A stretch of 64,000 nt of DNA from Minisyncoccota bacterium (GCA_022842645.1 JALHPE010000001.1:135711-199710), one strand, 5' to 3'. Counted from the first letter of the stretch, positions 1,571 through 61,338 are shown. The notes: generated from the letters alone by a model not told the origin. Program-made: numbers and translations.

Positions 1571-1584
1571 TCATCTACAAATCT

Positions 1585-6432: not shown

Positions 6433-6437
6433 AGTTC

Positions 6438-8487: not shown

Positions 8488-8490
8488 ATA

Positions 8491-13949: not shown

Positions 13950-14012
13950 GGTCTCTTCCCCTATGGGGCGAGTGTAGCATGCCGCTGCACCCTACCCCAG
14001 CCCACCCCTCGG

Positions 14013-15176: not shown

Positions 15177-15367
15177 AAGGTGGTTTCCGGCGCAAGTAAT
15201 GACATGTGCTAATGAGTTTATTAAGCAACACGCGTCCGATGCAGGGTCACCGTGCACGTCTTCTTACCTGGGTCATTGTAAACGACAAATATTGGACAAG
15301 TCATGAGAATTACGGCGCAATTGTGGATAACTCCCCTTGCGATACTACTGTCCTTTTCAAAAGGACG

Positions 15368-17775: not shown

Positions 17776-17781
17776 ACCAGA

Positions 17782-25500: not shown

Positions 25501-27543
25501 AATGCCGGTGCCGCCGTTTGAGATTCCCAAAATTCCTGTCACATCACTCCCGAGATTGACAAGTGTGCTCGTAATAGCCCCACCTGTCGCACGCAGAATG
25601 CCCGTGAGATTCCCAATTGAGAGCGAACCAAAAAAACCTTGCGTTGACGAAGCATAGCTTGTAGAAATTCTCGTCGCCGATGCATTTTCGAGCGTGAGTT
25701 TGTTGGTGAGTGCGAGCGCGTATGACGATGAGGCAAGCGTGATGGCCCCAGTTGATGTCGAGAAATCCCAGTACCCCGAGATGCCGCCCTGCGAACCGCC
25801 ATATTCTTCAAGGACGATCGCCGCGTCAATGTATTTAGGAAATACTAACACTGAAATTTGTCCTGTACCCGGACCATTCCAGTTCTCGAGCGCCTGCCCC
25901 AAGGTAAAACCTGAGCCCATAAGCTTCACACCAACACCCGCCGTTGTGCTCGCCGCAATGAAATCTCCGGCGCCAATAATGCCATTCGCATCACTCACTG
26001 TTGTTTCAATCACACCCGCAAAACCAACTACGTACGCATTCGGCACACCCTCCAAGTTGGCATTTGCCACAAATGCGGGGTTATCTGAAATAACACCGAT
26101 GAGCGATTGTCCCGCAACAGCACGCTGGTATTCACCGTCTGAATTGAGCGAAACCAGGTCGCCAACACTTGCCGACGAATTGAGCACCATATATTCGGCA
26201 AAGTCTGCAGCACCCGAAGTTTGTGTGATGCCAGTCCCCGCAGTTGAGAGACGGAGAGAGCCAACGCCGCGCCCGCCCGTATCAGCATTATCAGGAACAC
26301 CCGCAAAATACTCGATGAAGCGCGGGCATGTCGTGCCCGAAGTACATGTTGTTCCAAACGCCGTTCGAAGATTGAGGCGGAGCACGTTCGTGCCGGAACT
26401 GAGCGTCGGATTTGAATTTGAAACCGCGAGCACGGCCGTGCCCGTTGCACTCGTCGCCGCAGTTGTCGAACCAAGAATAGAAAATTGATATGAGGATGTA
26501 TCGAGTCCTACACGAAACGGACCCGCAAACGACGATGTTGCCGTTGAAGTGGCAATGATGTTACCCGTGAGAAAACGTCCTTGCGCGGTTGTTGAGGCAA
26601 GGTTTGCGCTTGTCGTTGCGGTTATGTCCCCAAAGAGTCCTGAGAGCGATGCGAGCGTAGAAGCAAAAAGGCTGGTGGTTGTTGCGTTGGTCGTGGTTGC
26701 ATTCGTTCCAATGATATTGGTGGCGGTGAGATTGGTGATCGTCGCCACAGCAGCAACAAGAGAATTGACAATTATGTTCGTGAAGCGTCCAAGTGTTGAA
26801 AAAAGCGTTGTCGATGTTGCATGTGTTGTTGTTGCTGCAGCAGCTGTCACTCCACCAGCGAGTGTCAAATTACCCTGCGCAGTAATTTTGTTTGCCGCAC
26901 TGAAAAATTGGATGTCCCCTGTTGCCTGCCCCCCACCCTGGAGCGTGAGGGCGTTTGTGGTCGTTGCGTTAATAAAAGGATTTGTGCCGCCAAGAATGAG
27001 ATTGCCGGACGCAAGAACTGGAATTTGATTCCCACTTGCATACTGTGCCGCCGAAAAACCACCGACCATTGAAGCATTAATGGCATAGCCCGAGGCGAGA
27101 ATGCGCTGACGTGGTGAGAATGTTTCGAACGATTCCGCGCCGTCCCCCGGAGCACAGGTCGCACCTACTTTCGTTGCTACTTCAACATTTAAATATGCGG
27201 CGTCGGTATCCTGAAAATTAAAATCGAGCACGTCGCCCCCGATATTCGTGTCGCCAATACCCACCGTGAACACACCGTTACGAACCGGCGCGGTCATCGT
27301 TGAGGGAGCGGAAGCAGGCCACAGTTTTGTACCAGAACCAACTGTGGGAACGTCATAGAAAGAAAACTTGAAACAATACTCGGTGCCCGTGCCTCCAAGA
27401 AGCGTCCCCCCACTCGAAAGAAGACGTCCCTGGTAATTGAGCATCCGCGGCACCCCAGGCGCCGCAAATACGGGAAGCACAGGAATTAGCACTCCAAGAA
27501 GGCAGAGGACGCCTACCCAATAACGCACGCATTTATTCAACAT
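19552..27543 (-). CDS. giant (about 2660 aa) secreted repeat-rich surface protein; start uncertain
   Basis: Single ORF. Signal peptide. Many GGTG-containing ~35-aa repeats. ~20-aa FSTTSxDYWxxxxNFF repeats. Two Gly-rich blocks each ending VVxYEY. C-terminal ~340-aa domain starting ADLAENYPV and an acidic Pro-rich tail. Confidence 0.8.
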   Translation of the reverse strand: MLNKCVRYWVGVLCLLGVLIPVLPVFAAPGVPRMLNYQGRLLSSGGTLLGGTGTEYCFKFSFYDVPTVGSGTKLWPASAPSTMTAPVRNGVFTVGIGDTNIGGDVLDFNFQDTDAAYLNVEVATKVGATCAPGDGAESFETFSPRQRILASGYAINASMVGGFSAAQYASGNQIPVLASGNLILGGTNPFINATTTNALTLQGGGQATGDIQFFSAANKITAQGNLTLAGGVTAAAATTTHATSTTLFSTLGRFTNIIVNSLVAAVATITNLTATNIIGTNATTTNATTTSLFASTLASLSGLFGDITATTSANLASTTAQGRFLTGNIIATSTATSSFAGPFRVGLDTSSYQFSILGSTTAATSATGTAVLAVSNSNPTLSSGTNVLRLNLRTAFGTTCTSGTTCPRFIEYFAGVPDNADTGGRGVGSLRLSTAGTGITQTSGAADFAEYMVLNSSASVGDLVSLNSDGEYQRAVAGQSLIGVISDNPAFVANANLEGVPNAYVVGFAGVIETTVSDANGIIGAGDFIAASTTAGVGVKLMGSGFTLGQALENWNGPGTGQISVLVFPKYIDAAIVLEEYGGSQGGISGYWDFSTSTGAITLASSSYALALTNKLTLENASATRISTSYASSTQGFFGSLSIGNLTGILRATGGAITSTLVNLGSDVTGILGISNGGTGISTAPTYGQLLLGNAIGGYDLVATSSLGITGTFSTTSASFFSSQGLAFSTTSNDYWKSVNNFFSTTSTDYYISQANLSGFSTTSADYWQTQRNFFSTSSASYFSSLGLAFSTTSNDYWKSVNNFFSTTSAAHFTSLGLTFSTTSSDYWKSVNNFFSTTSVDYWETQQTARTADDLTNNSIEELNDVAAMTENYGDLFAWNGSTWTDFATSTLGIALADTAGTLAANRGGTGLSSISAAGILLGNYAGTGWQQLSTSTLGLLTTHVAEGANLYYTDSRVQTFLNALDKGYFFSTTSAQHFVHSSSTIPKTYTANTFTAAQSFTGGLTSNALTLTGLNGPLDARNGVVSATTSIGVLYGGTGLTAAPTFGQMLVGNASGGYTLTATSSLGLPTFAYLFPNNATTTGLGIYASSTIGSGTQAGGLTISGGATTTGLLAVLGAGTSTFAGGLQASVLNVTSVSATSTFANGINIGQGCVAVNGVCLGAGGGGGEGSGVLVAIRTFTTPGVTTYTPSPGATIAHVVVTGGGGGGGGADAPAADVANETVGGGGGAGASSIVVVDVVATTSVQISVGSAGTAGSNTGGTGGTGGQSRFSTFAIANGGVGGGGSAVNAACAAGSWGTAGTGGSASSGDLNVSGGDGHIGDCLAEVVFGGLGGSSYWGGGGRGGQDGGNVCTAGATAGAYGAGGGGASCEDVDTGATGGAGGTGTVVVYEYGPFTGELGVTSGGTGTTTVPTYGQLLVGDGLGAYTLMGTSTLGIQGIFSTTSALHFSSLGLAFSTTSNDFWQTQRNFFSTTSANFFVSSSTTIPKTYTANTFTALQTFGNASSTLFSTTYASTTNLVVSGLQNGLLRVDGQGNVSLAVAGTDYATFGYLFPGNATNTLLSFNGGLIANASSSITALSSTFSTSTNATSTNLFATNARFTSATTSNLGITNLPSALLATDATGRVYATTSLAASYLDVTGNWSGTFDGQEGSFYLANSFSTTSATNFASLGLAFSTTSNDYWQTQRNFFSTTSANFFVSSSTTIPKTYTANTFTALQTFGNASTTNISASYASSTQGFFGSLSVGNLTGILRATAGAISATLVDLASDVNGILQVANGGTGWGNIQSGTLLTGNGTGALATTTIGSSLQLSGGTLALNTGNANTWTARQNFALASSSALSAGRAYFGETATTTIDTAGNVVVAGALNVTGNTTLSAATTTNLLVTASSTFQDFTSRNATSSLLFTNAFRGAGLLGCDTSGDKLLWNSLTGQFSCGVDAGASGSGISSLGAPGQPQTGATQTFASSSDANIGITITSAGNAHTFAMNWLGMLGVSRGGTGWGNIQSGTLLTGNGTGALATTTVGSSLQLASATLGLNLANANIWSGLQRFGGGASTTALSANDFVAVGRTATTTIRGETNATSTFAGGIEGRALNITTGTSTFANGINITGGCFSVNGACITDTVVKLTAVNTFTTSQAYTKPNGMSYIVVEVWGGGGGGGDGDGTGDGTGGGGSGGYAMEQFTVSELAGTTTPFIQIGAAGTVTASASGGAGGTSAFAGSATSTGGGGGVRANGADGAGGAGGIGSGGDLNMNGDSGGYGDTAIGIGGAGGDAPRGGVGGAGGVGAGAAGAAGACGGGGGGSNGTGTVGGVGCVVIYEYTTVTSGADLAENYPVTDPSIGPGDIVAFDTSSPLVVTRALEEVKRPLVGIVATAPGIVLGEKDQVGQRPVALAGRIPTKVNLEGGVIEVGDRIALSSEAGVGRKANVFDDTVGIALSAYDGTQEEATVMLFVDLQRGIEIDALGLALLGDMEGLRVIATSTEQFDFVDGVMHAISVRLQNAFGIASTEFATSSASSTDGVATSIATSTASTTPRTGEQSFIASILTHIAEWFASATNGIGAIFVDTVKAKNEICIDDQCLTKEDVRSLLEITDVPEYETLSEEDMTGPIEEIVPPPSAGENPPIGGEASSETPEAPSVSASPSADIPPTPESEVPEASPPTE

Positions 27544-27934
27544 AGCCCCTGTTCTGCACTTCTTGCAGATTGCGCGCACTGATACGATTGTCGAGGCTCA
27601 CCGCAAATACATACGCAAGCAATAGAATCACGACTACGAGGAGCACAACACATGTCCAGGCAACCCACGTATAGAGATTCACCAGCGACTCTGGGGTCGT
27701 GAGTACTTTTTTAAGCCGATCACTATATGATGGCTCTTCGGCTTTTTTGTCTTTGTTTTGCTGGTAGGCCTCAAGCGCCTCACGCGTCGTCATCCACGCA
27801 ACGTTTGAGTAGACCTGTTTGCCTTCCAATTTTCCTGCACGAATAAGCTGACCGATATAGTCGGCGCTGTAGCCTGTAATTTGCGCGGCCTCTTTGAGGT
27901 TTATGTATTCGTCCTGCTTCCCCATAGAACTCAT
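27533..27934 (-). CDS. membrane-anchored helix-turn-helix DNA-binding protein
   Basis: INLKEAAQITGYSADYIGQLIRAGKLEG is an HTH (MerR/excisionase-like). C-terminal TM VAWTCVVLLVVVILLLAYVFAV. 3' end overlaps the giant gene start by ~11 nt. Confidence 0.5.
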   Translation of the reverse strand: MSSMGKQDEYINLKEAAQITGYSADYIGQLIRAGKLEGKQVYSNVAWMTTREALEAYQQNKDKKAEEPSYSDRLKKVLTTPESLVNLYTWVAWTCVVLLVVVILLLAYVFAVSLDNRISARNLQEVQNRGYVE

Positions 27935-28082: not shown

Positions 28083-28844
28083 ATGCCAAAGCTCGCGTAC
28101 GCTAGAGATATGTCCGGCCTTGCAGCAAAAACTCTTGTTCTTGGCGGTATTATCTTTGCAATCATTATTGTTGGCTTCTTGGAGGCCCGAAAAGGGGCTG
28201 AGCTTGATGAGTTGGTTAGAGACACTCTCCGACAGCTCGGTATGAATCGCACCTATGGAATGCGAGCAGAGACTCGTGTGGATATTGGCGATCGTATACT
28301 TTCGATTGACGGCACCTATCGCATAGATACCCCGGCAAAATCGTATTCCTCAAACTCGCGCACAACCCTAACGGTTAAAAATACCGGCGAAACACATTCA
28401 TTTACCCTCCAAAACATCTCTCTTGGTGAAAAAGTCTATGTATCAGTCTCGACTGACAGTCCACTCCTCAGACAGACACTGCCTCTCACGGAAGGGTGGC
28501 GCTCGTTTGACAGTAGGGCGATACCAGAGGAGTTCGTAGGCATTGCCGTCTATGGCCCAATTCTTGATAACACGCGCATCTTTGCGGATGAGGGTGCTCA
28601 TCTTACCTTTCTCGAAAAGAAGGTAGAGGATAGCGGCGAACAGTACGTTTTTAAGCTTAGCAATCCTCGCGACGAGATAGGGGGCACACTTCAAACACTG
28701 TTTGAGCGTATTGGCTCGGAGGGGCGTGTGTTTGTATGGCTTCGTGAAGGAAGGGTCTCTCACTTCGTCTTTACTGGCAAAGACTACGTCTCAACCACAA
28801 CGCTCATGGGGGGAGAGCTTGACCCCATCACTCCCCCACTTTGA
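28083..28844 (+). CDS. hypothetical N-terminally anchored extracytoplasmic protein
   Basis: TM LVLGGIIFAIIIVGFL then soluble domain. 253 aa. Overlaps the next gene by 4 nt. Confidence 0.4.
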   Translation: MPKLAYARDMSGLAAKTLVLGGIIFAIIIVGFLEARKGAELDELVRDTLRQLGMNRTYGMRAETRVDIGDRILSIDGTYRIDTPAKSYSSNSRTTLTVKNTGETHSFTLQNISLGEKVYVSVSTDSPLLRQTLPLTEGWRSFDSRAIPEEFVGIAVYGPILDNTRIFADEGAHLTFLEKKVEDSGEQYVFKLSNPRDEIGGTLQTLFERIGSEGRVFVWLREGRVSHFVFTGKDYVSTTTLMGGELDPITPPL

Positions 28845-29602
28845 TGTGTACAGCCAAGACCGAGACGCTCGCCACGAAGTACACTAAGGCTATGCAGGCA
28901 TTTCTTCGTCGCCATGCCCACAAAATCCTGATTGGACATGGAACTGCAATCGCACTCCTTACCACAAGCATGATGATGGGCGTGCCTAAAGCTATTATGT
29001 ATCTCGCACCCACACCTGAACAAATGCGGGTGGGAGAAAATGCCACGCTCTCCATTAATCTCAATGCCCAAGTGCCGGTGAACGCTATTGGCACAACACT
29101 CGTAATCCCACCTGAGATGGAAGTAATTGCCATCAGCAAGGAAGGATCTTTCTTGGACCTTTGGACTGAGGAAACGGTGTTGCGTGAAGCGGTGGGTGAA
29201 CTGCGGTTTAGTGGAGGATCACTCGCGCGCGGAGGACTCACCGGAGTGCATACAGCGCTTACACTAACTGTCCGCGCCAAAACACCCGGCGAAGCAGTCT
29301 TCTCATTCAAAGATACTGAGGTGCGGGCCCATGATGGAACGGGAGAGCGTATCACAACCGAGCTTCGCACCCTCTCCATTACAATCGTTCCGGAAACTCC
29401 CAAAGAAGAAGTCGGAGTAGAGACACAAAGAGCGGCGCCACATGCTGATTTTGACGGAAAAAATGGCGTCACTATCGCCGATATGTCTATTCTCATGATG
29501 AAGCTCTTTGGCCCTTACGATGCATACTTCGATCTAAACCGCGACGGCCTGCTTTCGCTCGCCGATCTCTCGGTTTTCTTTAGCGCGATGCAAGATCGGT
29601 AG
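28841..29602 (+). CDS. secreted protein with cohesin-like beta-sandwich domain and C-terminal dockerin-like segment
   Basis: Signal/TM. ATLSINLNAQVPVNAIGTTLVIPPEMEVIAISKEGSFLDLW...GELRFSGG resembles cohesin modules. C-terminal FDGKNGVTIADMSILMM...DLNRDGLLSLADLSVFF dockerin-like repeats. Confidence 0.45.
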   Translation: MMCTAKTETLATKYTKAMQAFLRRHAHKILIGHGTAIALLTTSMMMGVPKAIMYLAPTPEQMRVGENATLSINLNAQVPVNAIGTTLVIPPEMEVIAISKEGSFLDLWTEETVLREAVGELRFSGGSLARGGLTGVHTALTLTVRAKTPGEAVFSFKDTEVRAHDGTGERITTELRTLSITIVPETPKEEVGVETQRAAPHADFDGKNGVTIADMSILMMKLFGPYDAYFDLNRDGLLSLADLSVFFSAMQDR

Positions 29603-29605: not shown

Positions 29606-30580
29606 TTATTTCTCACGAATGCGGCCGTATTTTGCTTTTTCGATCGCATGGATGTGGTAGAGGTAGCCCGCACCCAAACCACCGAGGACGAGAAGAAAGA
29701 GTATAGGGAGAATCGTCCCCACCACGTCTGCACCAACGGCGGCAACAGACGCAAATCCTTCCGAACGCACCGTTATTGTGAGCCGTGCGGCTTCCGACAT
29801 CTTGCCATTCTGATTCTCAGTCATGGCTCGAAGACGATAGACACCGGGACGTGCGCCCATGTTGGAGACAAACATAAATGCGCCGTCCCCATCCGTGGTA
29901 AGCGCCGTTGTTTCAGCCTCATCCCCTTCTCCAAAGAGGAATACTATCTTCGTGTTCGGCGCAGCAACTCCTGTTACTACAATTCGCTCTCCCACAGGCA
30001 CAAAACCCGGATGCGGATCAAAAATAGGTGCGGGAGGTGCCTCCTCGATATATGCTTCATAGCCTTCTTCTGTCGATGTTGCGTCACTCAGTTCAGGAAC
30101 CGCCCCTTCCTCGCGCGGCTGAACTGTGTAGAGCCCTGAGCGCATGCTGGTGATTATGTTTGAACCTTTACCATCAGCGGCGAGAATGGCACCCGCGGCA
30201 AGATAGGCATTACTGGGGCGCGAGCGGAGTGCCTTGAACTCCACGGTGACGAGAAGTCCTCGCGAACCGCGGTACGGTACTTTTGTCCACCCCGCAAAAC
30301 GCAGTGTTCCTGTCTGATTTGAAAATGTCGGCTGCGTTGGCCATGCATCGAGAATAGAACCATCAGTCGAAACTTTTTGTATCTCAATTGCGTCGGGATT
30401 AAATGTGAGCTCCGCCTCAGCAGCATTTACCTCTGCGTCATCGGTATCAGCATACACACGTATTTCAAAAATCTCACCGATCGTATAGGCTCCCGTTTCT
30501 GGCTCAACAAAGAGCGCTGCCTCTGCGGCAAAAACCCCGCTCGGAACAAGGAGAACCAGCGCGAGGAAAACACGCATCAT
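29606..30580 (-). CDS. membrane-anchored cohesin-like scaffold protein (cohesin-like + Ig-like + C-terminal TM)
   Basis: Signal peptide. FEIRVYADTDD...VNAAEAELTFNPDAIEIQKVSTDGSILDAW...GTLRFAGW cohesin-like pattern. C-terminal TM TILPILFLLVLGGLGAGYLY. Confidence 0.5.
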   Translation of the reverse strand: MMRVFLALVLLVPSGVFAAEAALFVEPETGAYTIGEIFEIRVYADTDDAEVNAAEAELTFNPDAIEIQKVSTDGSILDAWPTQPTFSNQTGTLRFAGWTKVPYRGSRGLLVTVEFKALRSRPSNAYLAAGAILAADGKGSNIITSMRSGLYTVQPREEGAVPELSDATSTEEGYEAYIEEAPPAPIFDPHPGFVPVGERIVVTGVAAPNTKIVFLFGEGDEAETTALTTDGDGAFMFVSNMGARPGVYRLRAMTENQNGKMSEAARLTITVRSEGFASVAAVGADVVGTILPILFLLVLGGLGAGYLYHIHAIEKAKYGRIREK

Positions 30581-31491
30581 GCGCCTGATGCAGGATCTGT
30601 TGGCTTTTCCCTGGGTCGCAGGTACAGCCGCGAGAATGCGATGAGCACAACGAGTATGACGCCGAAAATGATGAATGAAAGATCGATCGACGCCTGTGAT
30701 TCCGGTGCGGCCTCCGCGTCATACTCTCCCAAGCGCTCGTTTCCTGCCTTGTCTATGGCACGGACACGAATATCGTCGAGCGATTTAAAACGAAGGGCGT
30801 GGGGGCTCGTAACCGTACGCCAGGCTCCTCGCTCATAGAGCTCGAAGTGATCAAGCCCACTCTGCTTATCGGTTGTCGAAAATACGAGAAAATAGCGGCC
30901 GCTAAAGATCCCGCGCGTTGAGTGAGCCTCGACCGTAAATGCTTCTGGTGGAATAGTATCTTCCTGTACCTCCTGAATCCATTCGTTTGCCGAAAGTTGT
31001 GGCTCACGAAGGAGTGTAAACGACGCAACGCTTCGTTCCGGCACTATCTCAGTCCCCAGACCATCATGTGCATAGAGACGTGCGTTGTTACTTATGAGCA
31101 CGTCAGCATTCTCGCTTGTGCCAACAACTGTGAATGCAATTCTGCCGAGAATATTGCTCAGCGACGGGTCGCCCTGAACGCGTCCGCAATACCCACCGGG
31201 AATGCCACCCGCAAATGAGACGATACCGCGCTCGTAATCGAGTACGGGCTCGCGCACCCACAAGGAGAGTATTGATGAGCCTTTACTGAAATCAACGGCG
31301 CGCATGCTTTCTTTGGGGTATACAATCTCGATGTCAGCAGCATTTATACACGCATCGTCAGTGAGAACCCGCACTTCTGCAATAAACGTATCTCCCACTC
31401 CATATGTCCCATCCCCCGGCGTGAGATAGACACTTGCGGCATGTGCAAAAATGGGGGAAGCAAAGAGTGCGAGTGCAAGAATGGCGCGCAT
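30577..31491 (-). CDS. membrane-anchored cohesin-like scaffold protein, paralog
   Basis: Signal peptide. FIAEVRVLTDDACINAADIEIVYPKESMRAVDFSKGSSILSLW...GIVSFAGG. C-terminal TM FIIFGVILVVLIAF. Confidence 0.5.
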   Translation of the reverse strand: MRAILALALFASPIFAHAASVYLTPGDGTYGVGDTFIAEVRVLTDDACINAADIEIVYPKESMRAVDFSKGSSILSLWVREPVLDYERGIVSFAGGIPGGYCGRVQGDPSLSNILGRIAFTVVGTSENADVLISNNARLYAHDGLGTEIVPERSVASFTLLREPQLSANEWIQEVQEDTIPPEAFTVEAHSTRGIFSGRYFLVFSTTDKQSGLDHFELYERGAWRTVTSPHALRFKSLDDIRVRAIDKAGNERLGEYDAEAAPESQASIDLSFIIFGVILVVLIAFSRLYLRPREKPTDPASGA

Positions 31492-31505
31492 ACCTATAGT
31501 ATATA

Positions 31506-32666
31506 TTAGCCCGTCCAGTTAAAGAGCATGATACTAAAATCTCCGAGATTTACGGTGCCGTCTTTGTTGAAGTCATAGCGCGCGTCGGTCTTCCCCCACG
31601 AGATGAGAAAGATCGAGAAATCGACGAGATTGACTTTGCCGTCATCGTTAACATCAGCTGAGCCGGTGCCTCCAGGAGAACCTGCGCCCACAAAAAACCC
31701 CACAGAGCGACCGTACCCGCTCGAAGCTTCGATCGAAAGTTCAAAAAGCGCCTTTGCAGTGTTCATCCCTTCAGAGAGCGATCCGGTGTCTACTTGCAGT
31801 ACCCACAGTCCTGCCTGGTCGCTCTCTGCAGAGAACGATGTCTTCTTCCCGGCAAACACATCCGCGAACACCTTCACATCGGGCACTGTCTGTCCCTGGA
31901 GCGTCAAAAAATCTCCTCGTGGTATTTCAACCGCACTCGCAGAGATGGTCGGCGGAATGAGTATATTTGCGATGGTAGTCACCGCGCTCTGGACGACCTC
32001 AAATACAAACGCGGTAGTAAGTGAGTCGACACCACGACTATCTTTTGCAGAAAAGCCAAACGTCGTAATACCGGGGGTCACCTGATTGGTTGTGTAGATA
32101 AAATTTGCTTTGGAATCAGCGCGGGTGGTTCCAAATTCTTTGCCATCAACCAACACGCGCACATCAGCGTTTGGGTATGCTTTCCCGCGCATCACCACTT
32201 TTGTTTCGTTTGCAGACGGAATGGTTCCTGGTTGCCCCCCAGGAAGATTCGGGATAGAGCCGACGGTTGGCGAGCCCGGGTTTGACGGCGGCACTGCGGT
32301 TTCCGACTGGCACGTCGCCGAACAAAGGTCGCCGTTGGTATGATTACCATCGTCACACTGCTCAGAGAAACGCACTTGGAGTATGTTATCGCCGCAGTAA
32401 GGACCGAAGCTTACACAATCAGCCGCACACACACGCAGCGTAGTCGAGGAGCCGTACGTACCCAGGTTATTCCCTGCCCCAAGATCACAGACCTCTTCGG
32501 TGCTCACAACTCCATCGCCACAAATGGTGATGATAGCGCTAGTTTGAAGATCAATTGCAGCGGCTTGTGGAAGAAATATGAGGTACGCTTCAAGTAGGAG
32601 CACGCCGATACCCATTGCGGTGAGGAGCCCTATCCACACACGCTCAAACAGACTACCAGCGAACAT
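31506..32666 (-). CDS. secreted Cys-rich/Ig-like protein with C-terminal dockerin-like module
   Basis: C-terminus DVNDDGKVNLVDFSIFLISW...DFNKDGTVNLGDFSIMLFNWTG is nearly identical in pattern to the dockerin-like terminus of the 10797..12458 protein. Confidence 0.6.
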   Translation of the reverse strand: MFAGSLFERVWIGLLTAMGIGVLLLEAYLIFLPQAAAIDLQTSAIITICGDGVVSTEEVCDLGAGNNLGTYGSSTTLRVCAADCVSFGPYCGDNILQVRFSEQCDDGNHTNGDLCSATCQSETAVPPSNPGSPTVGSIPNLPGGQPGTIPSANETKVVMRGKAYPNADVRVLVDGKEFGTTRADSKANFIYTTNQVTPGITTFGFSAKDSRGVDSLTTAFVFEVVQSAVTTIANILIPPTISASAVEIPRGDFLTLQGQTVPDVKVFADVFAGKKTSFSAESDQAGLWVLQVDTGSLSEGMNTAKALFELSIEASSGYGRSVGFFVGAGSPGGTGSADVNDDGKVNLVDFSIFLISWGKTDARYDFNKDGTVNLGDFSIMLFNWTG

Positions 32667-33630
32667 GCGGGCGAGAAGTGCGACGACGCGCGAGAATGAC
32701 GGCAAGAGAGAGCACGATAAGAAGTGGGATACCAACAAAACCAGCAACTTTTAGTTTATCGGCATTTGAAAGTCCTCCGAAACCGTACCCCTCATATCCA
32801 GGAACACTTCCTATGGTTGAGATGCTCACGTCGAGCACGTCCTGTTGCGCAACCTCTTCACCTTTTTGAATAGTGTATTTTGCCTTATAACGTCCTGCTG
32901 GGAGACGTGTCGGGAGTTCCGCAAGCACCTCCTGAATTGCAAACGGTGGAATTGACTCAATCGTATTCGTATTCTCGGTAGTTTCGAGCAGTGTTTCCAT
33001 ATCGGCATCGTATATCTCGAACCGCACCCCAGTTGGTCCATAGTCGGTATTCCCTGTATTTTCGATCGTCATGAGAAAGCGAATCTTGCCAGGAAAGAAC
33101 AGTCCCCACTTCCAGCGACCTTCTTCGAGATCAGAGAGTCGAATCTTTCTCACTGAGAAATCGTAAATCTTATCAACAACTTCAATATCAACGTCGATCT
33201 GGGCACCGAGCGCAATTGACACACCGCTTCCCTGAGGACCTGCCGCAGCCGAAGATGTTCGCACCCGAATGGTTCCTTCGTGTGTTTTGTATTCGGCATC
33301 TTCGGGAACCTGCACGCGTACGATAATAGGAATTTGAGTTGTGCCTTTCGGTAAGATAAATGTATTTCCACGATCAACAGAAAACCACGATTCGATGCCG
33401 GGAATATTCATGGTGATCTCCGCAGTGAGGTCTTCTGAGGGGTCGGAGCGTACGAGCGTTATTTTTTGTTCAAAGACAGTCCCGCGCGTGAGACGTTGAT
33501 TATTCACATACGGAGGTGTGATACCAAACCCCGCATGTGCAAGTGGCGCACATACAAAAAACACAATGAGTGTCACGAGCGAAAAGCGCATAGAAAAAAA
33601 GCGCCTGTGTTTCGCGGCCATAGAGCGCAT
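32653..33630 (-). CDS. CscA-like cell-surface protein (DUF916/DUF3324-like architecture), paralog 4
   Basis: Signal peptide. Two beta-rich domains with conserved GRYKAKYTI...G motif. C-terminal TM FVGIPLLIVLSLAVIL + RRRTSR. Confidence 0.5.
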   Translation of the reverse strand: MRSMAAKHRRFFSMRFSLVTLIVFFVCAPLAHAGFGITPPYVNNQRLTRGTVFEQKITLVRSDPSEDLTAEITMNIPGIESWFSVDRGNTFILPKGTTQIPIIVRVQVPEDAEYKTHEGTIRVRTSSAAAGPQGSGVSIALGAQIDVDIEVVDKIYDFSVRKIRLSDLEEGRWKWGLFFPGKIRFLMTIENTGNTDYGPTGVRFEIYDADMETLLETTENTNTIESIPPFAIQEVLAELPTRLPAGRYKAKYTIQKGEEVAQQDVLDVSISTIGSVPGYEGYGFGGLSNADKLKVAGFVGIPLLIVLSLAVILARRRTSRPHVRW

Positions 33631-33717
33631 TTTAGCACCTACTAACGCTATGTCTTGCCTCTGTACCCACGAACCGGGAGAGAGAGAAAAGTGACCCATG
33701 AACCCCAGGAAAACGCT

Positions 33718-35592
33718 TTACCAGAAGGAACTATTACTCTTCTTTGCTGTTATTGTGTTTTGCCCGAGATAGCTACCCGCTTGCGTAATCGCGCTTGGAA
33801 TGTTGATGCCCCAGTAGGTATCCCGTTCTTGCGGGGAGCTTGTGGCGGTTGTCTTCGGAACGCGTATCAAGAGTTCAGCCGGAGTCGTAGAGCCGGTGAG
33901 TGTAAATGCGGTAGTGGACGCATAGCCGACTGAGGAAGTTGCGAATTTTTGGTTAGAGACCGGAATATCGTTTGCGGGATTAATGCCGTTGGTATCACAC
34001 GAGTCTGGTGCACTCCATATCGTACACATCGTGTCGCCATAGAGGTCTTGGTCGAGGCCAATGTTTCCGAGTGCAATAAGATCAGTTGTGGTTGCGAGAG
34101 GATCGTTCTGCTGACCCGGCTCGAGCCCGCCGTACCCAATCGCAGTTTCTGTCACGTTAAATGCGAGGAAACTGGTCATTTCATTTCCTGTTGAACCCTC
34201 GGTGAGTCCACTTGAGAAACCGTCATCGTCGAGAATACTGACCGAGGTGAGCCAGTTTTCCGCTGTCCAAGGCGTTGCGGTATCGGTTGGGTCTGCGACG
34301 TACCAAAGCGGGAATGTGCATGTCCATGTGGATGTGGTATCCGACGTCCCACTACACGAGGCGCCATCCTGGGTGCAGGAAACAAAAGGACTGAAATTCG
34401 GCGACGAGGATGCATAGCAGTTGTTAGGATTATATTCGCCAGAAGAATCACAGCCTGCTTGTGTGATACCTGAGCGATAGACGTTGATGGTTGCCGTCGC
34501 GATCTCATTCCCCACCGTTGCCTGACAGCTATTGTTGTCAGTTGCGGTAAAGCGTACACGAAAAGGTCCGGTTGTTGCACTCGGCGTGACGAGCGTTAAG
34601 TTACCCGAGCCATCAGTGTCTTCAAGACTGACGGTCGCAGCACTCACACTTGGCGCGACATTGTTCACGGTAAACGATGAATTGAAACCTTGGAATGTCG
34701 ATGTTGCACTGTGACCATGATTATCGATCACGAACACAAATGCCGAATACAGAGCGTCCTGTGTTGGAATCACAATAGTGGTGGTCGTTGCGGGGTTAGA
34801 CGACGCAAGCGTCGAGGTTGCCCAGGCGCCACCGGTACAGGTTCCGTTACTGAAACCGCTCGTGCGGCACACGATGAGTTGCACAGTGTCAGCAACACCA
34901 GCAACATCAGTATCTGATGCCGTAGAGTTCCATGTCATCGTATCCCCCGGATCGACTGGACCATCGTTTGATATCGCGGTGAAAATAGGAGGGTGGTTTA
35001 CAACAAAGGGCGAGGAGGTTGTGCCACTACCTTGCCTAAACGCCAGGTTGCAGCGCGGAAGCGGGTTATTACCATCGCATACCCATGCGAACCAATCATT
35101 AAGCTCGTTTTGAAATGGGAAGGTTTCTCTGGTGGTTGTTGCAGCGGTTGCTTGTAAGCCACTGCCCGTAGAAGCTGAAACCGCCCACTGATTGGCAACA
35201 CCACCATTGCAGGTCGGCGCCGCACTGATGTTTGCAGTGGGTGTGCCACTTGTTTTACAAATGAGGAGGTAGTAGTTGTCGCCGCTTGAGTCCGTTGCCG
35301 TTCCAATCCAAGAAACAACACTTCCCGAATTGGTGGGAGTTGTTGTGGAAGATCCAATGTTTTCTTGCGCATCCACTGTCCATGTTGGCGCGGTGTTGAG
35401 CACCGTAACTGATGTGGTCACGTCGTCTGCGCGTGCGTTTGGTACATTCGCATCAAAGAGGAGCGTAAACAAAAGTGCCGAGATAACCGCAAGGATCAAA
35501 GCACCACTTTTGCCTTCACCCCCCTGGAGTGCGCTCTGACATAAACGAAGAAGCCCGAACTGATACGGCATACTATGCACTGATGGTAGCAC
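33718..35592 (-). CDS. secreted T/S-rich surface protein with C-terminal WxL-like motif
   Basis: Signal-anchor. C-terminus YWGINIPSAITQAGSYLGQNTITA is shared with the giant protein terminus YWGINVPSGTAATLHAGTNTFIATSD. Confidence 0.55.
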   Translation of the reverse strand: MLPSVHSMPYQFGLLRLCQSALQGGEGKSGALILAVISALLFTLLFDANVPNARADDVTTSVTVLNTAPTWTVDAQENIGSSTTTPTNSGSVVSWIGTATDSSGDNYYLLICKTSGTPTANISAAPTCNGGVANQWAVSASTGSGLQATAATTTRETFPFQNELNDWFAWVCDGNNPLPRCNLAFRQGSGTTSSPFVVNHPPIFTAISNDGPVDPGDTMTWNSTASDTDVAGVADTVQLIVCRTSGFSNGTCTGGAWATSTLASSNPATTTTIVIPTQDALYSAFVFVIDNHGHSATSTFQGFNSSFTVNNVAPSVSAATVSLEDTDGSGNLTLVTPSATTGPFRVRFTATDNNSCQATVGNEIATATINVYRSGITQAGCDSSGEYNPNNCYASSSPNFSPFVSCTQDGASCSGTSDTTSTWTCTFPLWYVADPTDTATPWTAENWLTSVSILDDDGFSSGLTEGSTGNEMTSFLAFNVTETAIGYGGLEPGQQNDPLATTTDLIALGNIGLDQDLYGDTMCTIWSAPDSCDTNGINPANDIPVSNQKFATSSVGYASTTAFTLTGSTTPAELLIRVPKTTATSSPQERDTYWGINIPSAITQAGSYLGQNTITAKKSNSSFW

Positions 35593-35644: not shown

Positions 35645-36853
35645 CTATTTGTAGCGAATCGCGTCGAGTGGGTTAATTTTTGCGGCGCGACGCGCAGGGA
35701 AAAGTCCGGTGATAAGCCCGACGACACCCGAAAAAGTCGCGATGAATGCGAGAAATGGAAGTGGATATTTGAAAATCCCAACCGCTTCCCCACCGAACTT
35801 ACTCGCCGCAACACTCAGGAGTCCATTCGCAAACCACCCAATACCGACGCCGATCATGATTCCCACAATGCCCCCGAGAAGACCAACAATAACCGCTTCC
35901 GCAACGAAGAGTACGACGATGTCACGCGACGAAGCGCCAATCGTGCGCATAATGCCGATTTCCGCCGTGCGCTCGAGGAGGGTGACCGTCATTGTATTGA
36001 ACATACCAATCGCAGAAACAGTGAGTGCGATTCCACCAAAGACTGCCAAGACTGCCTGAATACCTTGGAAGATTTTGTTTGCCTGTTCGACAGTTTTTGA
36101 AAGCGCCGTCACCACAAATCCCTGTGCGATAATTTCATCTTGCACTGGAACCAGTGACTCACTATCAATCACGCGCACTTGCACGCGCTCGTACTCAGGA
36201 ATCTGGAAGCGCGACGAAAACTCATCGAGCGTCATGATCGCCACGAGCGATGATGCGTCATCGGTTACTCCTTTAATAGTGTACGGAGTCTCAATCGCGA
36301 CTTCGGTAAAATCTTCAGTCCCCTCGTTCGGCACTAAAACGCGGAATGTGACTTGGCGACCAAGTGCTTCTGCCGGGTTTTCAACGCCGAAGAGTTTGAG
36401 CATCGCAGAAGAAACAATCACGCTTCGCTTGTCTTCCTCGGCAGTCGCGTCGGTAAACAGATCCCCTTCAAGCGCCTTGCCGCCAGTGTAGAGAAAATAG
36501 GATGGCTTCACGCCCTGGAGGAATGCATTCCCTGTGAGCCCCTCGTACGTTGCAAGCGTCGGAAAACTCGCCATGGGCGACACATCTTTCACGAGCTCGT
36601 TTGCTGCAAATGCATCGACAGTTTCTTGATCCAAGACTACCGCCTTCGAAGGCGGATTTGCAACGTTGAGAGAAAGGAGTGTTTCTCCGAAAACGATGCG
36701 TTCGAGAATGATACTCTGGAGCCCGAAGCCGAGGCCCACAAGCGCAACGACCGCCCCCGTTCCCACACCCATGCCCAAAATAGTGAGCCACGTACGCGAC
36801 GGGTTCGTCTTGAACATACGCGTTGAGAGCATTGCGATGTCTTGAATTCTCAT
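35645..36853 (-). CDS. ABC transporter permease, MacB/FtsX-like (4 TM + large extracytoplasmic domain)
   Basis: N-terminal TM, ~220-aa periplasmic domain, three C-terminal TMs with the FtsX-type motif. 402 aa. Confidence 0.8.
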   Translation of the reverse strand: MRIQDIAMLSTRMFKTNPSRTWLTILGMGVGTGAVVALVGLGFGLQSIILERIVFGETLLSLNVANPPSKAVVLDQETVDAFAANELVKDVSPMASFPTLATYEGLTGNAFLQGVKPSYFLYTGGKALEGDLFTDATAEEDKRSVIVSSAMLKLFGVENPAEALGRQVTFRVLVPNEGTEDFTEVAIETPYTIKGVTDDASSLVAIMTLDEFSSRFQIPEYERVQVRVIDSESLVPVQDEIIAQGFVVTALSKTVEQANKIFQGIQAVLAVFGGIALTVSAIGMFNTMTVTLLERTAEIGIMRTIGASSRDIVVLFVAEAVIVGLLGGIVGIMIGVGIGWFANGLLSVAASKFGGEAVGIFKYPLPFLAFIATFSGVVGLITGLFPARRAAKINPLDAIRYK

Positions 36854-36858
36854 GGTGG

Positions 36859-38205
36859 TTATGAATGCGCTCCGAGAAGTTCGTTCGCGCGGATGATGTA
36901 GCCGCCTTGAGCAATCAGTTTCTCTAAATGTCGCGCTATTTTCCCTGCCGCATCTTCGTCGTAGGCAGCGCCTCCAAGATGCTCGGGAAGCGCAAGTTTT
37001 TCTTCAAACTCTGCAGCGTTCGTGATACCTCCCACGCGATCGGCGACCGCATCGCGGAGTATTCCGATCTGCACAGCGGTTGAGGTAATGCCGATCTCTT
37101 CTTTGATGTAGTAGAGGAGGTGGTCGATGAATTTTCTTTGGTGGAGAAAGAGGTTGTCTGAATGCACTTCCGCGCGAAACTTTTGGACGTCCTGCGAATA
37201 GTGCACGAGGGCAAAGACACGATTCATAACCCCCGTCGCCTCATCCATGTGCATTCCCACGCCGCCCGCATGCACGCTCTTCATCAGAAATTCCATGAGG
37301 AGGTTTTCGTCCATGGTGCCGGCCAAGACCTGTAAGACCGCCTTCTCAAGCCGCTCGAGTTGCGTGAAGCCGATTGTTTGCGTCGCAAAATTCACAATGC
37401 TTTTTACCTTGAGCTCCATCGGTTCCGCATACGGATACAGACGTGCGAGCTGTTCGATTTCCGTCACAATGGTTTCCCCCGGCTTTGTGCGCTTCACTTG
37501 TGGCTTTTCAGGGTTCACCACAATGCGGCGTAATTCCCCATCGCGCATATAGAAGACGCGGTGCGCATACGGAAGATATTTTGCGTCGTGCGTGACGAGA
37601 ATTACCGTCTTTCTGTCTTTTTCGTTAATTTCTTCAAATGAATCCATAACGTGCTCGGCGGAGATAGAGTCGAGGTTACCAACAGGCTCGTCGGCAAGGA
37701 GAATCTCCGGATCGTTAATCAAGGAGCGCGCCACCGCAACACGCTGCTGCTGACCGCCCGACATCATGACGGGTGTTTTGTTCTCAAGGCGCTCAGGGAT
37801 ACCAAAACGACGCAGGAGTTCTTGCCCTCGTGCGTTCCGCTCCTGCACGCCCTTGTTAAGGAAGATCATCGGGAGCGCCACGTTGTCCAAGACGCTAATC
37901 GAAGTGATGAGGTTAAATTGCTGATAGACGATGCCGATCACGGCTTGTTGATAGCGATTCATTTCCGCCGGTGTGTAGGCATAAATATCTTCACCCTTAA
38001 CATAGAGGTGCCCGGTGTCGGGGACGTTACCGCCGAGAATGGTATAGAGGAGTGTGGATTTACCACACCCCGAAGGACCAAAGAGGATGATGTATTCGCG
38101 CGGATAGATCTCGACGTTAATATTTTTAAGCGCATTAAATTCGTTTGACTTCCCCTTGTTATAGGTAATCACGAGATTTTCTGCCTGAATCGCTGCTTTT
38201 GCCAT
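36859..38205 (-). CDS. ABC transporter ATP-binding protein (MacB/LolD-type) with ~220-aa C-terminal extension of unknown function
   Basis: Walker A GPSGCGKST, signature MSGGQQQR, Walker B LLADEPVGNLD, H-loop VTHD. The extension has no recognisable motif. Confidence 0.85.
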   Translation of the reverse strand: MAKAAIQAENLVITYNKGKSNEFNALKNINVEIYPREYIILFGPSGCGKSTLLYTILGGNVPDTGHLYVKGEDIYAYTPAEMNRYQQAVIGIVYQQFNLITSISVLDNVALPMIFLNKGVQERNARGQELLRRFGIPERLENKTPVMMSGGQQQRVAVARSLINDPEILLADEPVGNLDSISAEHVMDSFEEINEKDRKTVILVTHDAKYLPYAHRVFYMRDGELRRIVVNPEKPQVKRTKPGETIVTEIEQLARLYPYAEPMELKVKSIVNFATQTIGFTQLERLEKAVLQVLAGTMDENLLMEFLMKSVHAGGVGMHMDEATGVMNRVFALVHYSQDVQKFRAEVHSDNLFLHQRKFIDHLLYYIKEEIGITSTAVQIGILRDAVADRVGGITNAAEFEEKLALPEHLGGAAYDEDAAGKIARHLEKLIAQGGYIIRANELLGAHS

Positions 38206-38317: not shown

Positions 38318-39739
38318 TTATTTACCTATATTATTGACCCATCCGAAAGTGCCTTGGAAGTTCTCCAGAATAATATCAATAATGTTTTTCTCTTTAAACG
38401 GCGTGATTAAGACGAAATCTTCAGAGACCGATGAATTACGCGCTTCGTCTGCACACTCCACCCAGAAACGATACACAGTTGAGGGCGCGAACCCAACGAT
38501 CACCTTGGTGTGCTCCGTAGAAGGACTTACTTCGATGGGAAGTGAGTCCCCCTCTCCACTCCCCGCGGCGCCTTGTGCATAAAAGACCTGACACACGGCG
38601 GGCTCATCGGTTTCCCACGAGACTATGGTCTGAATTTTGGTGTCTTCGCCCGGAAAAAGTGTTGATTCGTTCTTCACCTTCGCAATCGCAGGAGGGATAA
38701 CGTCGCGAATGGTTATGAAGGTAAAGGGATCGCTCGAGAGCGTGTCACCACTTTCGTTGGTAGCAGTAATAACTGCGGAATACCGTGTGCCAAATTCAAG
38801 GTCGGCAAGACGAATACTATGATTCGAGGCATAAATAGGGCTGCCCACGGATTTTTTTGCATTGGTGCGTGTGTTCGTATATTCCACCACACCCTTTGCA
38901 ACCACATCTGGCGTTGCCCAGCTCACCACTGCTGAGTCTTCTTGAATGCGAGTCACTTTCGCGTCGGAAATGCGCGGGAGAAGGGAGCGTGTTTTGAAGG
39001 TATCATCGGCAGTTTCGGCGGCGAGTCCCACATCATCTTGTGAGACCACCTTAAAGTGATAGGTGGTTGCCGGTTCAAGCCCGATCACCGAGACGCTGTG
39101 CTTCGTGACACGCTCGGTCGCGTCTCCTTGAGTAATAGTGTAGGGATTTTCTGCACCGGCACGATAGCCGCTCTCTGGCGCAAGATAGACCGCAGAACCA
39201 GATTCGCGATCGGTCGTCCAGGTAATCTCCGCACTATTCGTATCAACCACAACTTTCGTCGCACCGAGAATCGTCGGTGGTTTCAAGATATCCCCGGCTT
39301 TATCTTTAAGAGCTTCGTCCACCTCTTTAATATCCTCCGGGTCTTCAAGTTTGTTGATGTCTTTGATGATGCGCTGCACGAGAGAGTCGTCGCCTGCTTT
39401 TGTGGTAAAAACGAACGCGCCCGTTGCTGCCTTGTTCCCCGCCGCGTCCGACGAGATGACGCGGAAGTGGTAGGTCGTCGCGGGATCGAGGTTATCCAGC
39501 GTGAGTGAGTGCTTATTTTTGTCGAACAAGGGGTAGCGCACAATCCCCACATTCGCATCGAGACCGTAATTGATGGTCGCATCGGTGTTCACATCAGTCG
39601 TCCACTCCACAACCGCTGAGCTATTGTTGACAGACACAACCTTCACGTCACTAATTTCTGCGGCAAACGTGTGCGCGAAGAAAAACAACACCGCAAGGAG
39701 TACAAGCAAAAGAGCACTCTTTGCACGCAGAGAGTTCAT
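38318..39739 (-). CDS. secreted protein with four fibronectin type III-like repeats
   Basis: Signal peptide. Repeated ATTYHFRVIS / ATTYHFKVVS / TRYSAVITA / TVYRFWVECAD motifs typical of Fn3 modules. Confidence 0.6.
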   Translation of the reverse strand: MNSLRAKSALLLVLLAVLFFFAHTFAAEISDVKVVSVNNSSAVVEWTTDVNTDATINYGLDANVGIVRYPLFDKNKHSLTLDNLDPATTYHFRVISSDAAGNKAATGAFVFTTKAGDDSLVQRIIKDINKLEDPEDIKEVDEALKDKAGDILKPPTILGATKVVVDTNSAEITWTTDRESGSAVYLAPESGYRAGAENPYTITQGDATERVTKHSVSVIGLEPATTYHFKVVSQDDVGLAAETADDTFKTRSLLPRISDAKVTRIQEDSAVVSWATPDVVAKGVVEYTNTRTNAKKSVGSPIYASNHSIRLADLEFGTRYSAVITATNESGDTLSSDPFTFITIRDVIPPAIAKVKNESTLFPGEDTKIQTIVSWETDEPAVCQVFYAQGAAGSGEGDSLPIEVSPSTEHTKVIVGFAPSTVYRFWVECADEARNSSVSEDFVLITPFKEKNIIDIILENFQGTFGWVNNIGK

Positions 39740-39761: not shown

Positions 39762-40106
39762 TTAGCGGCGGGCACGCACAAACCACGTGAGGATGAGGAA
39801 TACCCCGAGCACTATGAGTGTCGTGTGTGGAGCGTCATAGAAATAGTAAGTAGCGGGGCGTGTGCATGAGAGATAGTCGGAAGAATTGCCGTCGCAGTAG
39901 CGGCCGCTCTCGAATCCAAAGAAGCCGATAAGAAAGAGTGCCGTGCCGAGAAAAAGATCCGACTCTCGCGCAGCAATACTCGCCCGCACCCCAAGCCAGG
40001 AAACGAGCCTGTCGAGGAGATACATAATGAACATCCCCATAACCCAAAACCTATTGCGCACACGCCCTATAAATGTCTGTGATTCTTCCATGCCGCTATT
40101 GTACAC
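39762..40106 (-). CDS. hypothetical small integral membrane protein
   Basis: Three predicted hydrophobic helices. 114 aa. Confidence 0.3.
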   Translation of the reverse strand: MYNSGMEESQTFIGRVRNRFWVMGMFIMYLLDRLVSWLGVRASIAARESDLFLGTALFLIGFFGFESGRYCDGNSSDYLSCTRPATYYFYDAPHTTLIVLGVFLILTWFVRARR

Positions 40107-40127: not shown

Positions 40128-40784
40128 TTATTCCCGCGCAGGTTCGCCGAGGGAGATGAGGGCTTTATCGACGCGTTCTCGGGCGGATTTGAGGCGTTCG
40201 TAGAGTCCAGCGCGAGTGTTGAATTGTTCCTCGACAAGCGGGAGTTCGCGGTTTAAATCTGCAGAATAGGCACTCGTGAGCTCTCCCCCATCCAAAATAA
40301 TACGGTTGAATATTTCTGCGGTGTGAAAATTGGCGCGATACGAGAGGCCGCGGATGTCGGCAATAATCGCAAACTCTTCCTCTGCGGCGGCGATAAGCTC
40401 CTTCGTCTCGTCACCTGCAGTGAATCCTCCACCCTTTTCTTCAAGATAGGTAATCGCCACTTGCACGCGATCACCTGCTTCCCCGATCGCATCAATCTGC
40501 GTCTCAACTTCTTTCAGAGCCTTCAAGCCCTCTTCAGCAAGAGCACGGCGTTCAGGAGGCGTGAGTGGACGCACCAAGACAGACGAGAGAATGGTGTTCA
40601 AGCGCTCACGCACAGGATTTTCTGGCACGCCGGGCACATACGCCGCCTGCAAATGCTCGAATGAGCGCGTGCTATATGACTCAACGGCGCGTGTACTATC
40701 CCCCGAGGAAATTCTAAGAAAATAGAACGCTGCGGCGGCGAGAGCGAGGAGCACTATAAGAATGAGAATGTATGAACGACGCAT
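40128..40784 (-). CDS. hypothetical N-terminally anchored protein
   Basis: TM ILILIVLLALAAAAFYFL then alpha-helical soluble domain. Immediately downstream of the giant gene. Confidence 0.4.
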   Translation of the reverse strand: MRRSYILILIVLLALAAAAFYFLRISSGDSTRAVESYSTRSFEHLQAAYVPGVPENPVRERLNTILSSVLVRPLTPPERRALAEEGLKALKEVETQIDAIGEAGDRVQVAITYLEEKGGGFTAGDETKELIAAAEEEFAIIADIRGLSYRANFHTAEIFNRIILDGGELTSAYSADLNRELPLVEEQFNTRAGLYERLKSARERVDKALISLGEPARE

Positions 40785-61289: not shown

Positions 61290-61338
61290 GTGTGTATCGT
61301 AGCGGTATTTTGGGGCTTTAGGAAACAAGACGTGTGGA

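Follow-up and report, generated by a model that had tools for sequence, protein, structure and literature searches.

A C-terminal module common to a 624-aa secreted protein and a giant surface protein, encoded beside a membrane-anchored chaperone-like protein in a Parcubacteria-type bacterium

The stretch of DNA analysed here (the window, 64,000 nucleotides of Minisyncoccota bacterium GCA_022842645.1, JALHPE010000001.1:135711-199710) encodes a secreted protein of 624 amino acids (aa) and a giant surface protein of 6,336 aa that carry the same two-domain module at their C-termini. The gene of the 624-aa protein is followed by that of a 348-aa membrane-anchored protein with two immunoglobulin (Ig)-like domains and a predicted chaperone-like fold, an arrangement that is conserved in related genomes, and a companion cluster in the same window combines paralogs of the anchored protein with two proteins that show affinity to the pilins of Pam pili. 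The host is a Parcubacteria/Paceibacteria-type bacterium of the Candidate Phyla Radiation (CPR), ultrasmall and monoderm, and the region is best explained as one arm of an extensive locus for cell-surface assembly in this bacterium. The shared module probably serves as a handle for holding or assembling proteins on the cell surface. Our preferred reading, to which we assign a probability of about one half, is that the locus encodes a variant form of a Pam- or WxL/WxLIP-type surface system, in which the anchored chaperone-like protein would hold or assemble the module proteins by β-strand complementation and the giant would be the distal adhesin.

The C-terminal module of the 624-aa protein and the giant

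Open reading frame (ORF) calling in the window placed all genes under study on the minus strand. The features that carry the argument are the following:

33718-35592, minus: gene of the 624-aa secreted protein (ORF and translation)
33721-34674, minus: two-domain shared C-terminal module of the 624-aa protein, aa 307-624 (AlphaFold2, AF2, model and profile search)
34213-34674, minus: Ig-like domain of this module, with six conserved Cys
33721-34212, minus: C-terminal domain of the 624-aa protein
33745-33816, minus: terminal motif quoted by the initial annotation, YWGINIPSAITQAGSYLGQNTITA, inside the 624-aa protein
32653-33630, ORF up to 33699, minus: gene of the 348/325-aa membrane-anchored two-Ig protein
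32677-32766, minus: transmembrane (TM) helix of the 348-aa protein
40788-59798, minus: gene of the 6,336-aa giant surface protein
40791-41576, minus: shared module of the giant, aa 6075-6336, with its terminal motif at 40791-40868

The 624-aa protein comprises a Sec signal peptide (...NARA/DD, the slash marking its end), three Cys-containing Ig-like repeats, each of which starts with V-x-N-x-x-P, and a C-terminal β-sandwich domain; for an identical contig, gene callers elsewhere placed the start of the ORF at Met8 (617 aa). Its orthologs (n=81) are uniform in length (approximately 600-680 aa) and evenly conserved along the protein. The giant starts with a signal or anchor at its N-terminus, contains DUF2341, Ig_Rha78A_N and LamG-like regions and ends in the shared module. 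Residues 363-616 of the 624-aa protein align with residues 6114-6333 of the giant (BLASTP, 34.5% identity over about 255 residues, E=1e-22), and the comparison of 624-type and giant-type C-terminal profiles from other genomes yielded a probability of 99.95% (hhalign, E=6.6e-38). In the AF2 model of residues 307-624 of the 624-aa protein (pLDDT 88, pTM 0.83), the module consists of a Cys-rich Ig-like domain followed by a C-terminal β-sandwich of approximately 160 aa.

The initial annotation had described a common terminus of some 25 aa in these two proteins, which was borne out and understated, since the common module extends over approximately 255-318 aa. The terminal motif quoted for the 624-aa protein is indeed present, but it is not the actual end: the protein contains YWGINIPSAITQAGSYLGQNTITA, followed by KKSNSSFW up to the stop codon, while the C-terminus of the giant is YWGINVPSGTAATLHAGTNTFIATSD. 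Translated in six frames, the whole window shows the signature YWG[IVL] at two places only, namely the C-termini of the 624-aa protein and the giant.

The module is conserved beyond these two proteins. When its profile was searched against 1.84 billion protein cluster representatives, 1,425 representatives were retrieved at E<=1e-3 and 1,183 at E<=1e-10. The match reaches the protein C-terminus in about 144 of the 150 best relatives (approximately 96%), and the proteins that carry the module range from approximately 550 aa to over 2,000 aa (up to 2,300 aa). Given this position across varied surface proteins, the module can be regarded as a C-terminal cassette; in the literature searched, we found no description of this cassette on giant proteins.

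The 624-type family ends in the consensus TYWGIxVPxxITLAGxYxGQNTxxAxxSxxxxW, with a nearly invariant terminal Trp, and at least 90% of its members share residues W288, G289, I290, P293, G300, Y302, G304 and W318 of the module. The giant-type C-terminal domain, which is kept in 31 related loci just upstream of the gene of an FN3 protein, comes without this final tail. Near-invariance of the extreme C-terminal residue is found in the 624-type proteins (Trp) and in the 414/435-type proteins of the companion cluster described below (Phe). We consider this feature suggestive because the C-terminus of chaperone-usher pilins is chaperone-bound.

A Foldseek comparison of the module model with the PDB matched a CfaB-CfaB pilin fusion with a probability of 1.00, together with the two-domain tip adhesins CfaE, CsuE and FimH. 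The modelled fold is thus compatible with, rather than proof of, a pilin-like two-domain unit. A sequence search of the PDB sequences with the C-terminal region of the 624-aa protein gave nothing relevant, and the 624-aa protein had no Pfam match at E<=0.1 and no NCBIfam match. Scans of 34 members of its family likewise revealed no model of either database that recognises the module.

The membrane-anchored neighbour and the conserved operon

The 348-aa protein exhibits a signal peptide (...AHA/GFGITPPYV, the slash again marking its end), two β-sandwich domains, a GYEGYGF linker, a TM helix and an Arg-rich cytoplasmic tail. Its homologs (n=895), several of which carry the names Minisyncoccia or Parcubacteria, include 120 among the matches listed that are all at least 62% identical, one of them 100%. 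The family shows an invariant A/GFGITPPYVxNxRLTRG directly after the signal peptide. As the initial annotation had proposed, the protein is a paralog of the anchored proteins of the companion cluster, a distant one according to BLASTP (E=9e-9 with the 386-aa and E=4e-5 with the 416-aa protein).

The AF2 model of the 348-aa protein (pLDDT 82) was compared with known structures by Foldseek. The WxLIP protein of E. faecium was matched with a probability of 1.0 (9i25_C, 'bound to long WxL', E=3.8e-9; 9i1y, E=9.4e-9), with TM-scores of only 0.28-0.36, similar to those of other PapD-like/FN3 tandem domains. The chaperones FimC, CfaA and Caf1M (E of about 1e-7 to 1e-8) and RbmA were matched as well. 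Searches of the PDB sequences with the 349-aa protein and with the A2/A3 profiles found no relevant match. The Pfam scan of the 348-aa protein revealed neither PF06030 (DUF916) nor PF11797 (DUF3324). In member-wise scans of its family, 2 of 30 members gave a weak WxLIP_HBD match, the other Pfam/NCBIfam matches being weak ones to CARDB, FxLYD and PACE-type S-layer models, and the companion-cluster paralogs reached 25.1, 16.1 and 14.3 bits with Pfam WxLIP_PGBD, all under its cut-off of 27.3. Neither Pfam nor NCBIfam has a model that recognises either protein of the pair, so the present alignments could serve to build such models.

The pair is embedded in an operon with these further members and neighbours in the window:

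35645-38205, minus: MacB/FtsX-type ATP-binding cassette (ABC) pair directly upstream of the 624-aa gene (permease 35645-36853, ATPase 36859-38205; Pfam MacB_PCD, FtsX, ABC_tran)
38318-39739, minus: triple-FN3 secreted protein, between the giant gene and the ABC pair
39762-40106 and 40128-40784, minus: two small membrane proteins, between the giant gene and the ABC pair
31506-32747, minus: DUF4215/Big/dockerin protein, operon member downstream
30577-31491 and 29606-30580, minus: two TM-anchored cohesin-like proteins, operon members downstream

A scan of species-representative genomes found 136 relatives, and synteny was counted over 82 loci. Leaving aside the Saccharibacteria and Acidimicrobiales titles discussed below, the relatives with names belong to Paceibacteria/Parcubacteria groups (Adlerbacteria, Kaiserbacteria, Lloydbacteria, Azambacteria and Spechtbacterales). 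More than 80 species-level genomes have kept the operon, and approximately 80 of the 82 loci show the gene order FN3, ABC ATPase, MacB/FtsX permease, 624-aa protein, 348-aa protein, DUF4215/dockerin protein and two cohesin-like anchored proteins. The gene pair that the initial annotation had singled out is present in the window with both ORFs as described, and in 81 of the 82 loci the 624-aa ortholog is immediately followed by a 348-aa homolog. The two genes of the ABC pair are syntenic in 73 and 68 loci, respectively, and a giant-type C-terminus is often encoded just upstream of the FN3 gene. The association also occurs with other partners: at locus L084 a 1,044-aa module protein precedes a 348-aa homolog (37% identity, E=3e-71), and locus L085 encodes in order a 563-aa small protein, a 347-aa homolog and a 1,649-aa large protein. 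Among the metagenome-assembled genomes with this operon of Paceibacteria type, many bear the title 'uncultured Candidatus Saccharibacteria bacterium', one locus (L071) is labelled Acidimicrobiales and one protein (P0148) Chitinophagaceae; these labels are probably labelling or binning errors.

The position of the ABC pair raises the question of whether the module is instead a sorting or handling signal for the MacB/FtsX-type machine, like the C-terminal β-sandwich signal of type IX secretion. In that case the transporter would release, extract or mount the module proteins and the 348-aa protein would be an accessory. Such a role would agree with the ATPase and permease genes directly upstream in 68-73 of the 82 loci, with the strictly C-terminal module and with a Pam model that is without known energy source (bioRxiv 10.64898/2026.03.03.709456). 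However, the module proteins carry ordinary Sec signal peptides, and several module-bearing proteins are encoded elsewhere with no ABC pair nearby. To our knowledge, moreover, no MacB-type system recognises a folded C-terminal domain, and we regard a sorting role as distinctly unlikely.

The companion cluster and the proposed mechanism

The companion cluster has the following features:

12900-19089, minus: companion cluster of three anchored chaperone-like paralogs and two Pam-pilin-like proteins
12900-13949, 15368-16618 and 16615-17775, minus: the anchored chaperone-like paralogs
14013-15257 and 17782-19089, minus: the Pam-pilin-like 414/435-aa proteins

The 414-aa and 435-aa proteins have a C-terminal domain in common (E=2e-16). 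The 435-aa protein matches NCBIfam NF058581 (CPR_Pam_pilin_C, Pam pilus system pilin subunit) with E=1.6e-9 and 38 bits, the cut-off being 55, and 23 of the 26 members of the 414/435 family match this model (best E=9.4e-11), all of them under the 55-bit cut-off. None of the 26 members matches Pfam WxL, and a search of the PDB sequences with the 435-aa protein gave nothing relevant. Judged by these profile matches, the two proteins are distant relatives of CPR Pam pilins and not the WxL-like proteins for which they had initially been taken. In approximately 30 related genomes, the 624/348 operon itself contains an ortholog of the Pam-pilin-like 414-aa protein, located between the genes of the dockerin protein and the first cohesin-like protein, and this links the two clusters of the window.

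The Pam pilus was described in 2026 (Troman et al., bioRxiv 10.64898/2026.03.03.709456). Its pilins consist of an N-terminal β-sandwich, a donated linker strand and an open C-terminal barrel, and the anchored proteins PamC/PamD were proposed to complement the pilin C-terminal domains ahead of strand exchange; the paper makes no mention of WxL or DUF916 (bioRxiv 10.64898/2026.03.03.709456). The WxL/WxLIP (Csc) clusters have a literature of their own (Siezen 2006; Brinster 2007; Hassan & Williamson, PMC9772566, PMC10599100), and in an AF2 prediction reported there the DUF916 β-hairpin of WxLIP inserts into the WxL domain (PMC10599100).

We propose that the 624-aa protein and the giant are exported via Sec and that β-strand complementation would allow the 348-aa protein to bind their C-terminal domains. 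The 348-aa protein would next keep both at the membrane or pass them to a Pam-like fibre made of 414/435-type pilins; in the fibre version, the giant would serve as a distal (tip-type) adhesin, and the 624-aa protein would act as a small adaptor or as an alternative tip. Binding of the cassette by strand complementation is proposed because the locus follows the same logic as WxLIP-WxL of Firmicutes and PamC/PamD-pilin of CPR bacteria, namely a conserved anchored PapD-like protein encoded beside fast-evolving secreted proteins with a strictly C-terminal β-domain as a handle. The companion cluster, in which paralogs of the 348-aa protein flank Pam-pilin-like genes, argues for this mechanism as well. 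We infer the physical interaction, the strand complementation, the groove and any polymerisation, and the giant as cargo of the anchored protein, which the initial annotation had put forward, would likewise follow from architecture and synteny.

Several observations weigh against this mechanism. None of the 34 members of the 624/giant C-terminal family matches NF058581 at E<=1, and the comparison of the 624/giant with the 414/435 C-terminal domains by hhalign gave a probability of 1-3.5% (P of about 0.01-0.03), no run being significant with narrow or broadened profiles in local, global and low-mact modes. In a reciprocal unfiltered hmmsearch of 3,833 ORFs, each family had the other as its top non-self match, yet with a non-significant E of 0.2-0.5. 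The two domains resemble each other at the level of motifs, with I-x-[FY]-G-x-L near the start and [TQ]-x-A-G-x-Y near the end. This resemblance is real but unproven as homology, which is not demonstrable from these sequence comparisons, so that the initial description of the 624/giant terminus as a variant of the 414/435 ending comes down to short motif correspondences. As for the folds, the Foldseek matches of the module have low TM-scores (0.3-0.36) and extend to generic tandem-Ig proteins (integrin alpha legs, Fab), and those of the 348-aa model extend to many PapD-like/ASH/FN3 tandem domains. Of six other large proteins that carry the module, three are encoded with no 348-aa homolog within 6 kb. 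Mirror-tree and partial correlation analysis of the C-terminal domain and the 348-aa protein revealed no specific co-evolution (partial r of 0.17-0.18, below that of the dockerin protein). Finally, the conserved MacB-type ABC pair fits neither the WxL nor the Pam model.

These points can also be accommodated by a generic tandem-Ig stalk that was spread by domain shuffling, in which case attachment to the envelope would occur otherwise (for example through the S-layer, the wall or a different partner), with the 348-aa protein as a conserved but unrelated neighbour. The generic nature of the fold matches, the absence of a sequence link to Pam or WxL and of a specific co-evolution signal in the mirror-tree analysis, the weak CARDB, FxLYD and PACE-type S-layer matches of the 348-aa family, and the module proteins without an adjacent 348-aa homolog are all consistent with a stalk of this kind. 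We nevertheless hold it to be unlikely, given that the module is strictly C-terminal in approximately 96% of its best relatives, that a 348-aa homolog is adjacent in 81 of the 82 loci and again beside the 1,044-aa and 1,649-aa partners, and that the 348-aa paralogs are interleaved with pilin-like genes.

The WxL and CscA-like labels of the initial annotation would, if taken literally, make the locus a WxL/Csc cluster, with the C-terminal domain as a divergent peptidoglycan-binding WxL domain, the neighbour as a CscA/WxLIP orthologue and the surface proteins displayed non-covalently on the wall. The layout lends itself to this interpretation: a small and a large protein, both with the module at the C-terminus, and an anchored two-Ig protein are found together in the window and at loci L001 and L085, which corresponds to the layout of a minimal WxL cluster. 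The Foldseek match of the 348-aa protein to WxLIP and the sub-threshold WxLIP_PGBD matches of its paralogs point in the same direction. WxL proteins, however, are defined by two Trp-x-Leu motifs approximately 68 aa (large) or 106 aa (small) apart, and over 91% of them belong to Firmicutes (PMC9772566). In the 624/giant family, none of the 34 C-terminal domains, that of the giant included, matches Pfam WxL (PF13731) even at E<=1. The module contains no paired WxL motifs 68-106 aa apart, its one W-G-I (in YWGI) lying approximately 18 aa before the terminal G-x-N-T. The CscA-like label holds for the architecture and the WxLIP fold match of the 348-aa protein and fails for PF06030 and PF11797 and for the NQIDKxxxYFDLK strand, which is replaced. 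Together with the Pam-type affinity of the 414/435-aa proteins, these results make a WxL/Csc cluster in the strict sense highly improbable, and the WxL label of the C-terminal domain finds no support in its sequence.

Beyond the preferred Pam- or WxL/WxLIP-type reading, a wider scenario can be sketched, although we find it doubtful. Giant CPR surface proteins (more than 6,000 aa) might be mounted through a dedicated, hitherto unrecognised C-terminal pilin-like cassette, as tip adhesins on donor-strand fibres or on anchored PapD-like holders. WxL/WxLIP, Pam and the Paceibacteria system might then be branches of one ancient monoderm superfamily ('anchored-chaperone plus strand-accepting C-terminal domain'), and the MacB-type ABC pair might be the energy step missing from current models.

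Other features of the locus and relation to known systems

The locus also contains a cohesin-dockerin set (29606-32747, 10797-12458, 59847-61370 and the plus-strand ORF 28841-29602). It consists of TM-anchored cohesin-like proteins of 324, 304 and 507 aa, of proteins of 413 and 553 aa that end in a type I dockerin/EF-hand, and of a plus-strand 253-aa ORF whose C-terminus is dockerin-like by eye and by analogy to locus L001. Most related genomes retain the cohesin-dockerin genes together with the operon, suggesting that the surface of this CPR cell has a second display system in the style of a cellulosome. The plus-strand ORFs 28083-28844 and 28841-29602, one of them dockerin-bearing, match opposite-strand genes called in L001, and the minus-strand 222-aa ORF at 28828-29496 is probably a shadow ORF.

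A second very large protein, of 2,675 aa (19552-27579), contains Gly_rich_2 and a Peptidase_G2 IMC autoproteolytic (tail-spike-like) domain and many FSTTS-type repeats; its C-terminus is Pro/Glu-rich, without the shared module. It may correspond to the 'tail fibre-like protein' that was reported to be central in pam operon neighbourhoods. Just upstream of its gene, and in 9 related loci, lies the gene of a 133-aa protein (27533-27934) with an N-terminal helix-turn-helix-like segment and a C-terminal TM helix, possibly a regulator of the locus that is tethered to the membrane. The cohesin-like and giant genes are directly preceded, on their own strand, by those of signal peptidase I (61897-62451) and Hsp20 (61339-61818), and a canonical FtsE/FtsX pair, separate from the MacB/FtsX-type pair, is located at 5515-7211.

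At the beginning of the window, positions 1-3600 contain a large serine recombinase gene (1585-3195; Resolvase, Recombinase, Zn ribbon) and an AAA_25 fragment, with a G+C content of 0.43-0.47 compared with approximately 0.52 elsewhere; this part may be the edge of an integrated element. A tRNA-like sequence was noticed by eye at about 8490-8565 on the minus strand, between a 105-aa ORF and a release-factor gene. If this tRNA is real, the release-factor ORF (7606-8529) is over-extended at its 5' side, with a likely start at the ATG at 8486. A programmed frameshift in the release-factor gene was considered and rejected, the apparent 5' extension overlapping this tRNA-like sequence.

The bacteria of the CPR (Patescibacteria) represent a large part of the diversity of bacteria and seem to live attached to other cells. 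The occurrence of the cassette in approximately 1,400 protein clusters offers a concrete, testable attachment mechanism for very large CPR surface proteins. The result extends the logic of the Pam pilus into Paceibacteria, and it suggests that Pam pili are structurally linked to the WxL/Csc clusters of lactic acid bacteria and enterococci, which have long been enigmatic.

Compared with chaperone-usher pili, the resemblance lies in the 348-aa model, which matches FimC, CfaA and Caf1M, and in the division into a variable N-terminal part and a C-terminal pilin-like domain that the tip adhesins FimH, CfaE and CsuE also show. Unlike chaperone-usher systems, this one belongs to a bacterium with neither outer membrane nor usher, its chaperone-like protein is membrane-anchored, TM-scores are only 0.3-0.46, and sequence similarity is absent in searches of the PDB sequences. 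No usher-like gene was found among the ORFs of approximately 0-19.5 kb and 28.8-62.9 kb and the two giants, a scan that left out 27533-27934 and the plus-strand 28083-29602.

With the WxL/WxLIP (Csc) clusters of Firmicutes, the locus shares the combination of a small and a large protein with a common, strictly C-terminal domain (PMC9772566, PMC10599100). The 348-aa protein, like WxLIP, combines a signal peptide, two Ig-like domains and a C-terminal TM helix (PMC10599100), and its model matches the solved structures PDB 9i25 and 9i1y. It differs in that the N-terminal NQIDKxxxYFDLK strand of WxLIP (PMC10599100) is replaced by GFGITPPYVxNxRLTRG in the 348-aa family, in that the 624-aa/348-aa pair has no Pfam WxL or WxLIP match, and in the phylum.

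From Pam pili the system differs in its host, which belongs to Paceibacteria/Parcubacteria rather than to the Saccharimonadia/Microgenomatia in which Pam is mainly found. It also differs in the size of its proteins (624 and 6,336 aa, compared with the far smaller PamA/PamB of 39-55 kDa) and in an operon that adds the MacB-type ABC pair, an FN3 protein without TM anchor and cohesin/dockerin proteins. In both cases, however, the host is a CPR monoderm, the chaperone-like proteins combine a PapD/FimC-like two-domain fold (a predicted one in the 348-aa protein) with a C-terminal TM helix, and a tail-fibre-like giant, here the 2,675-aa protein with its Peptidase_G2 IMC domain, is encoded nearby, as reported for pam neighbourhoods. 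In both, too, the anchored protein is encoded beside secreted proteins whose conserved part is a C-terminal β-domain.

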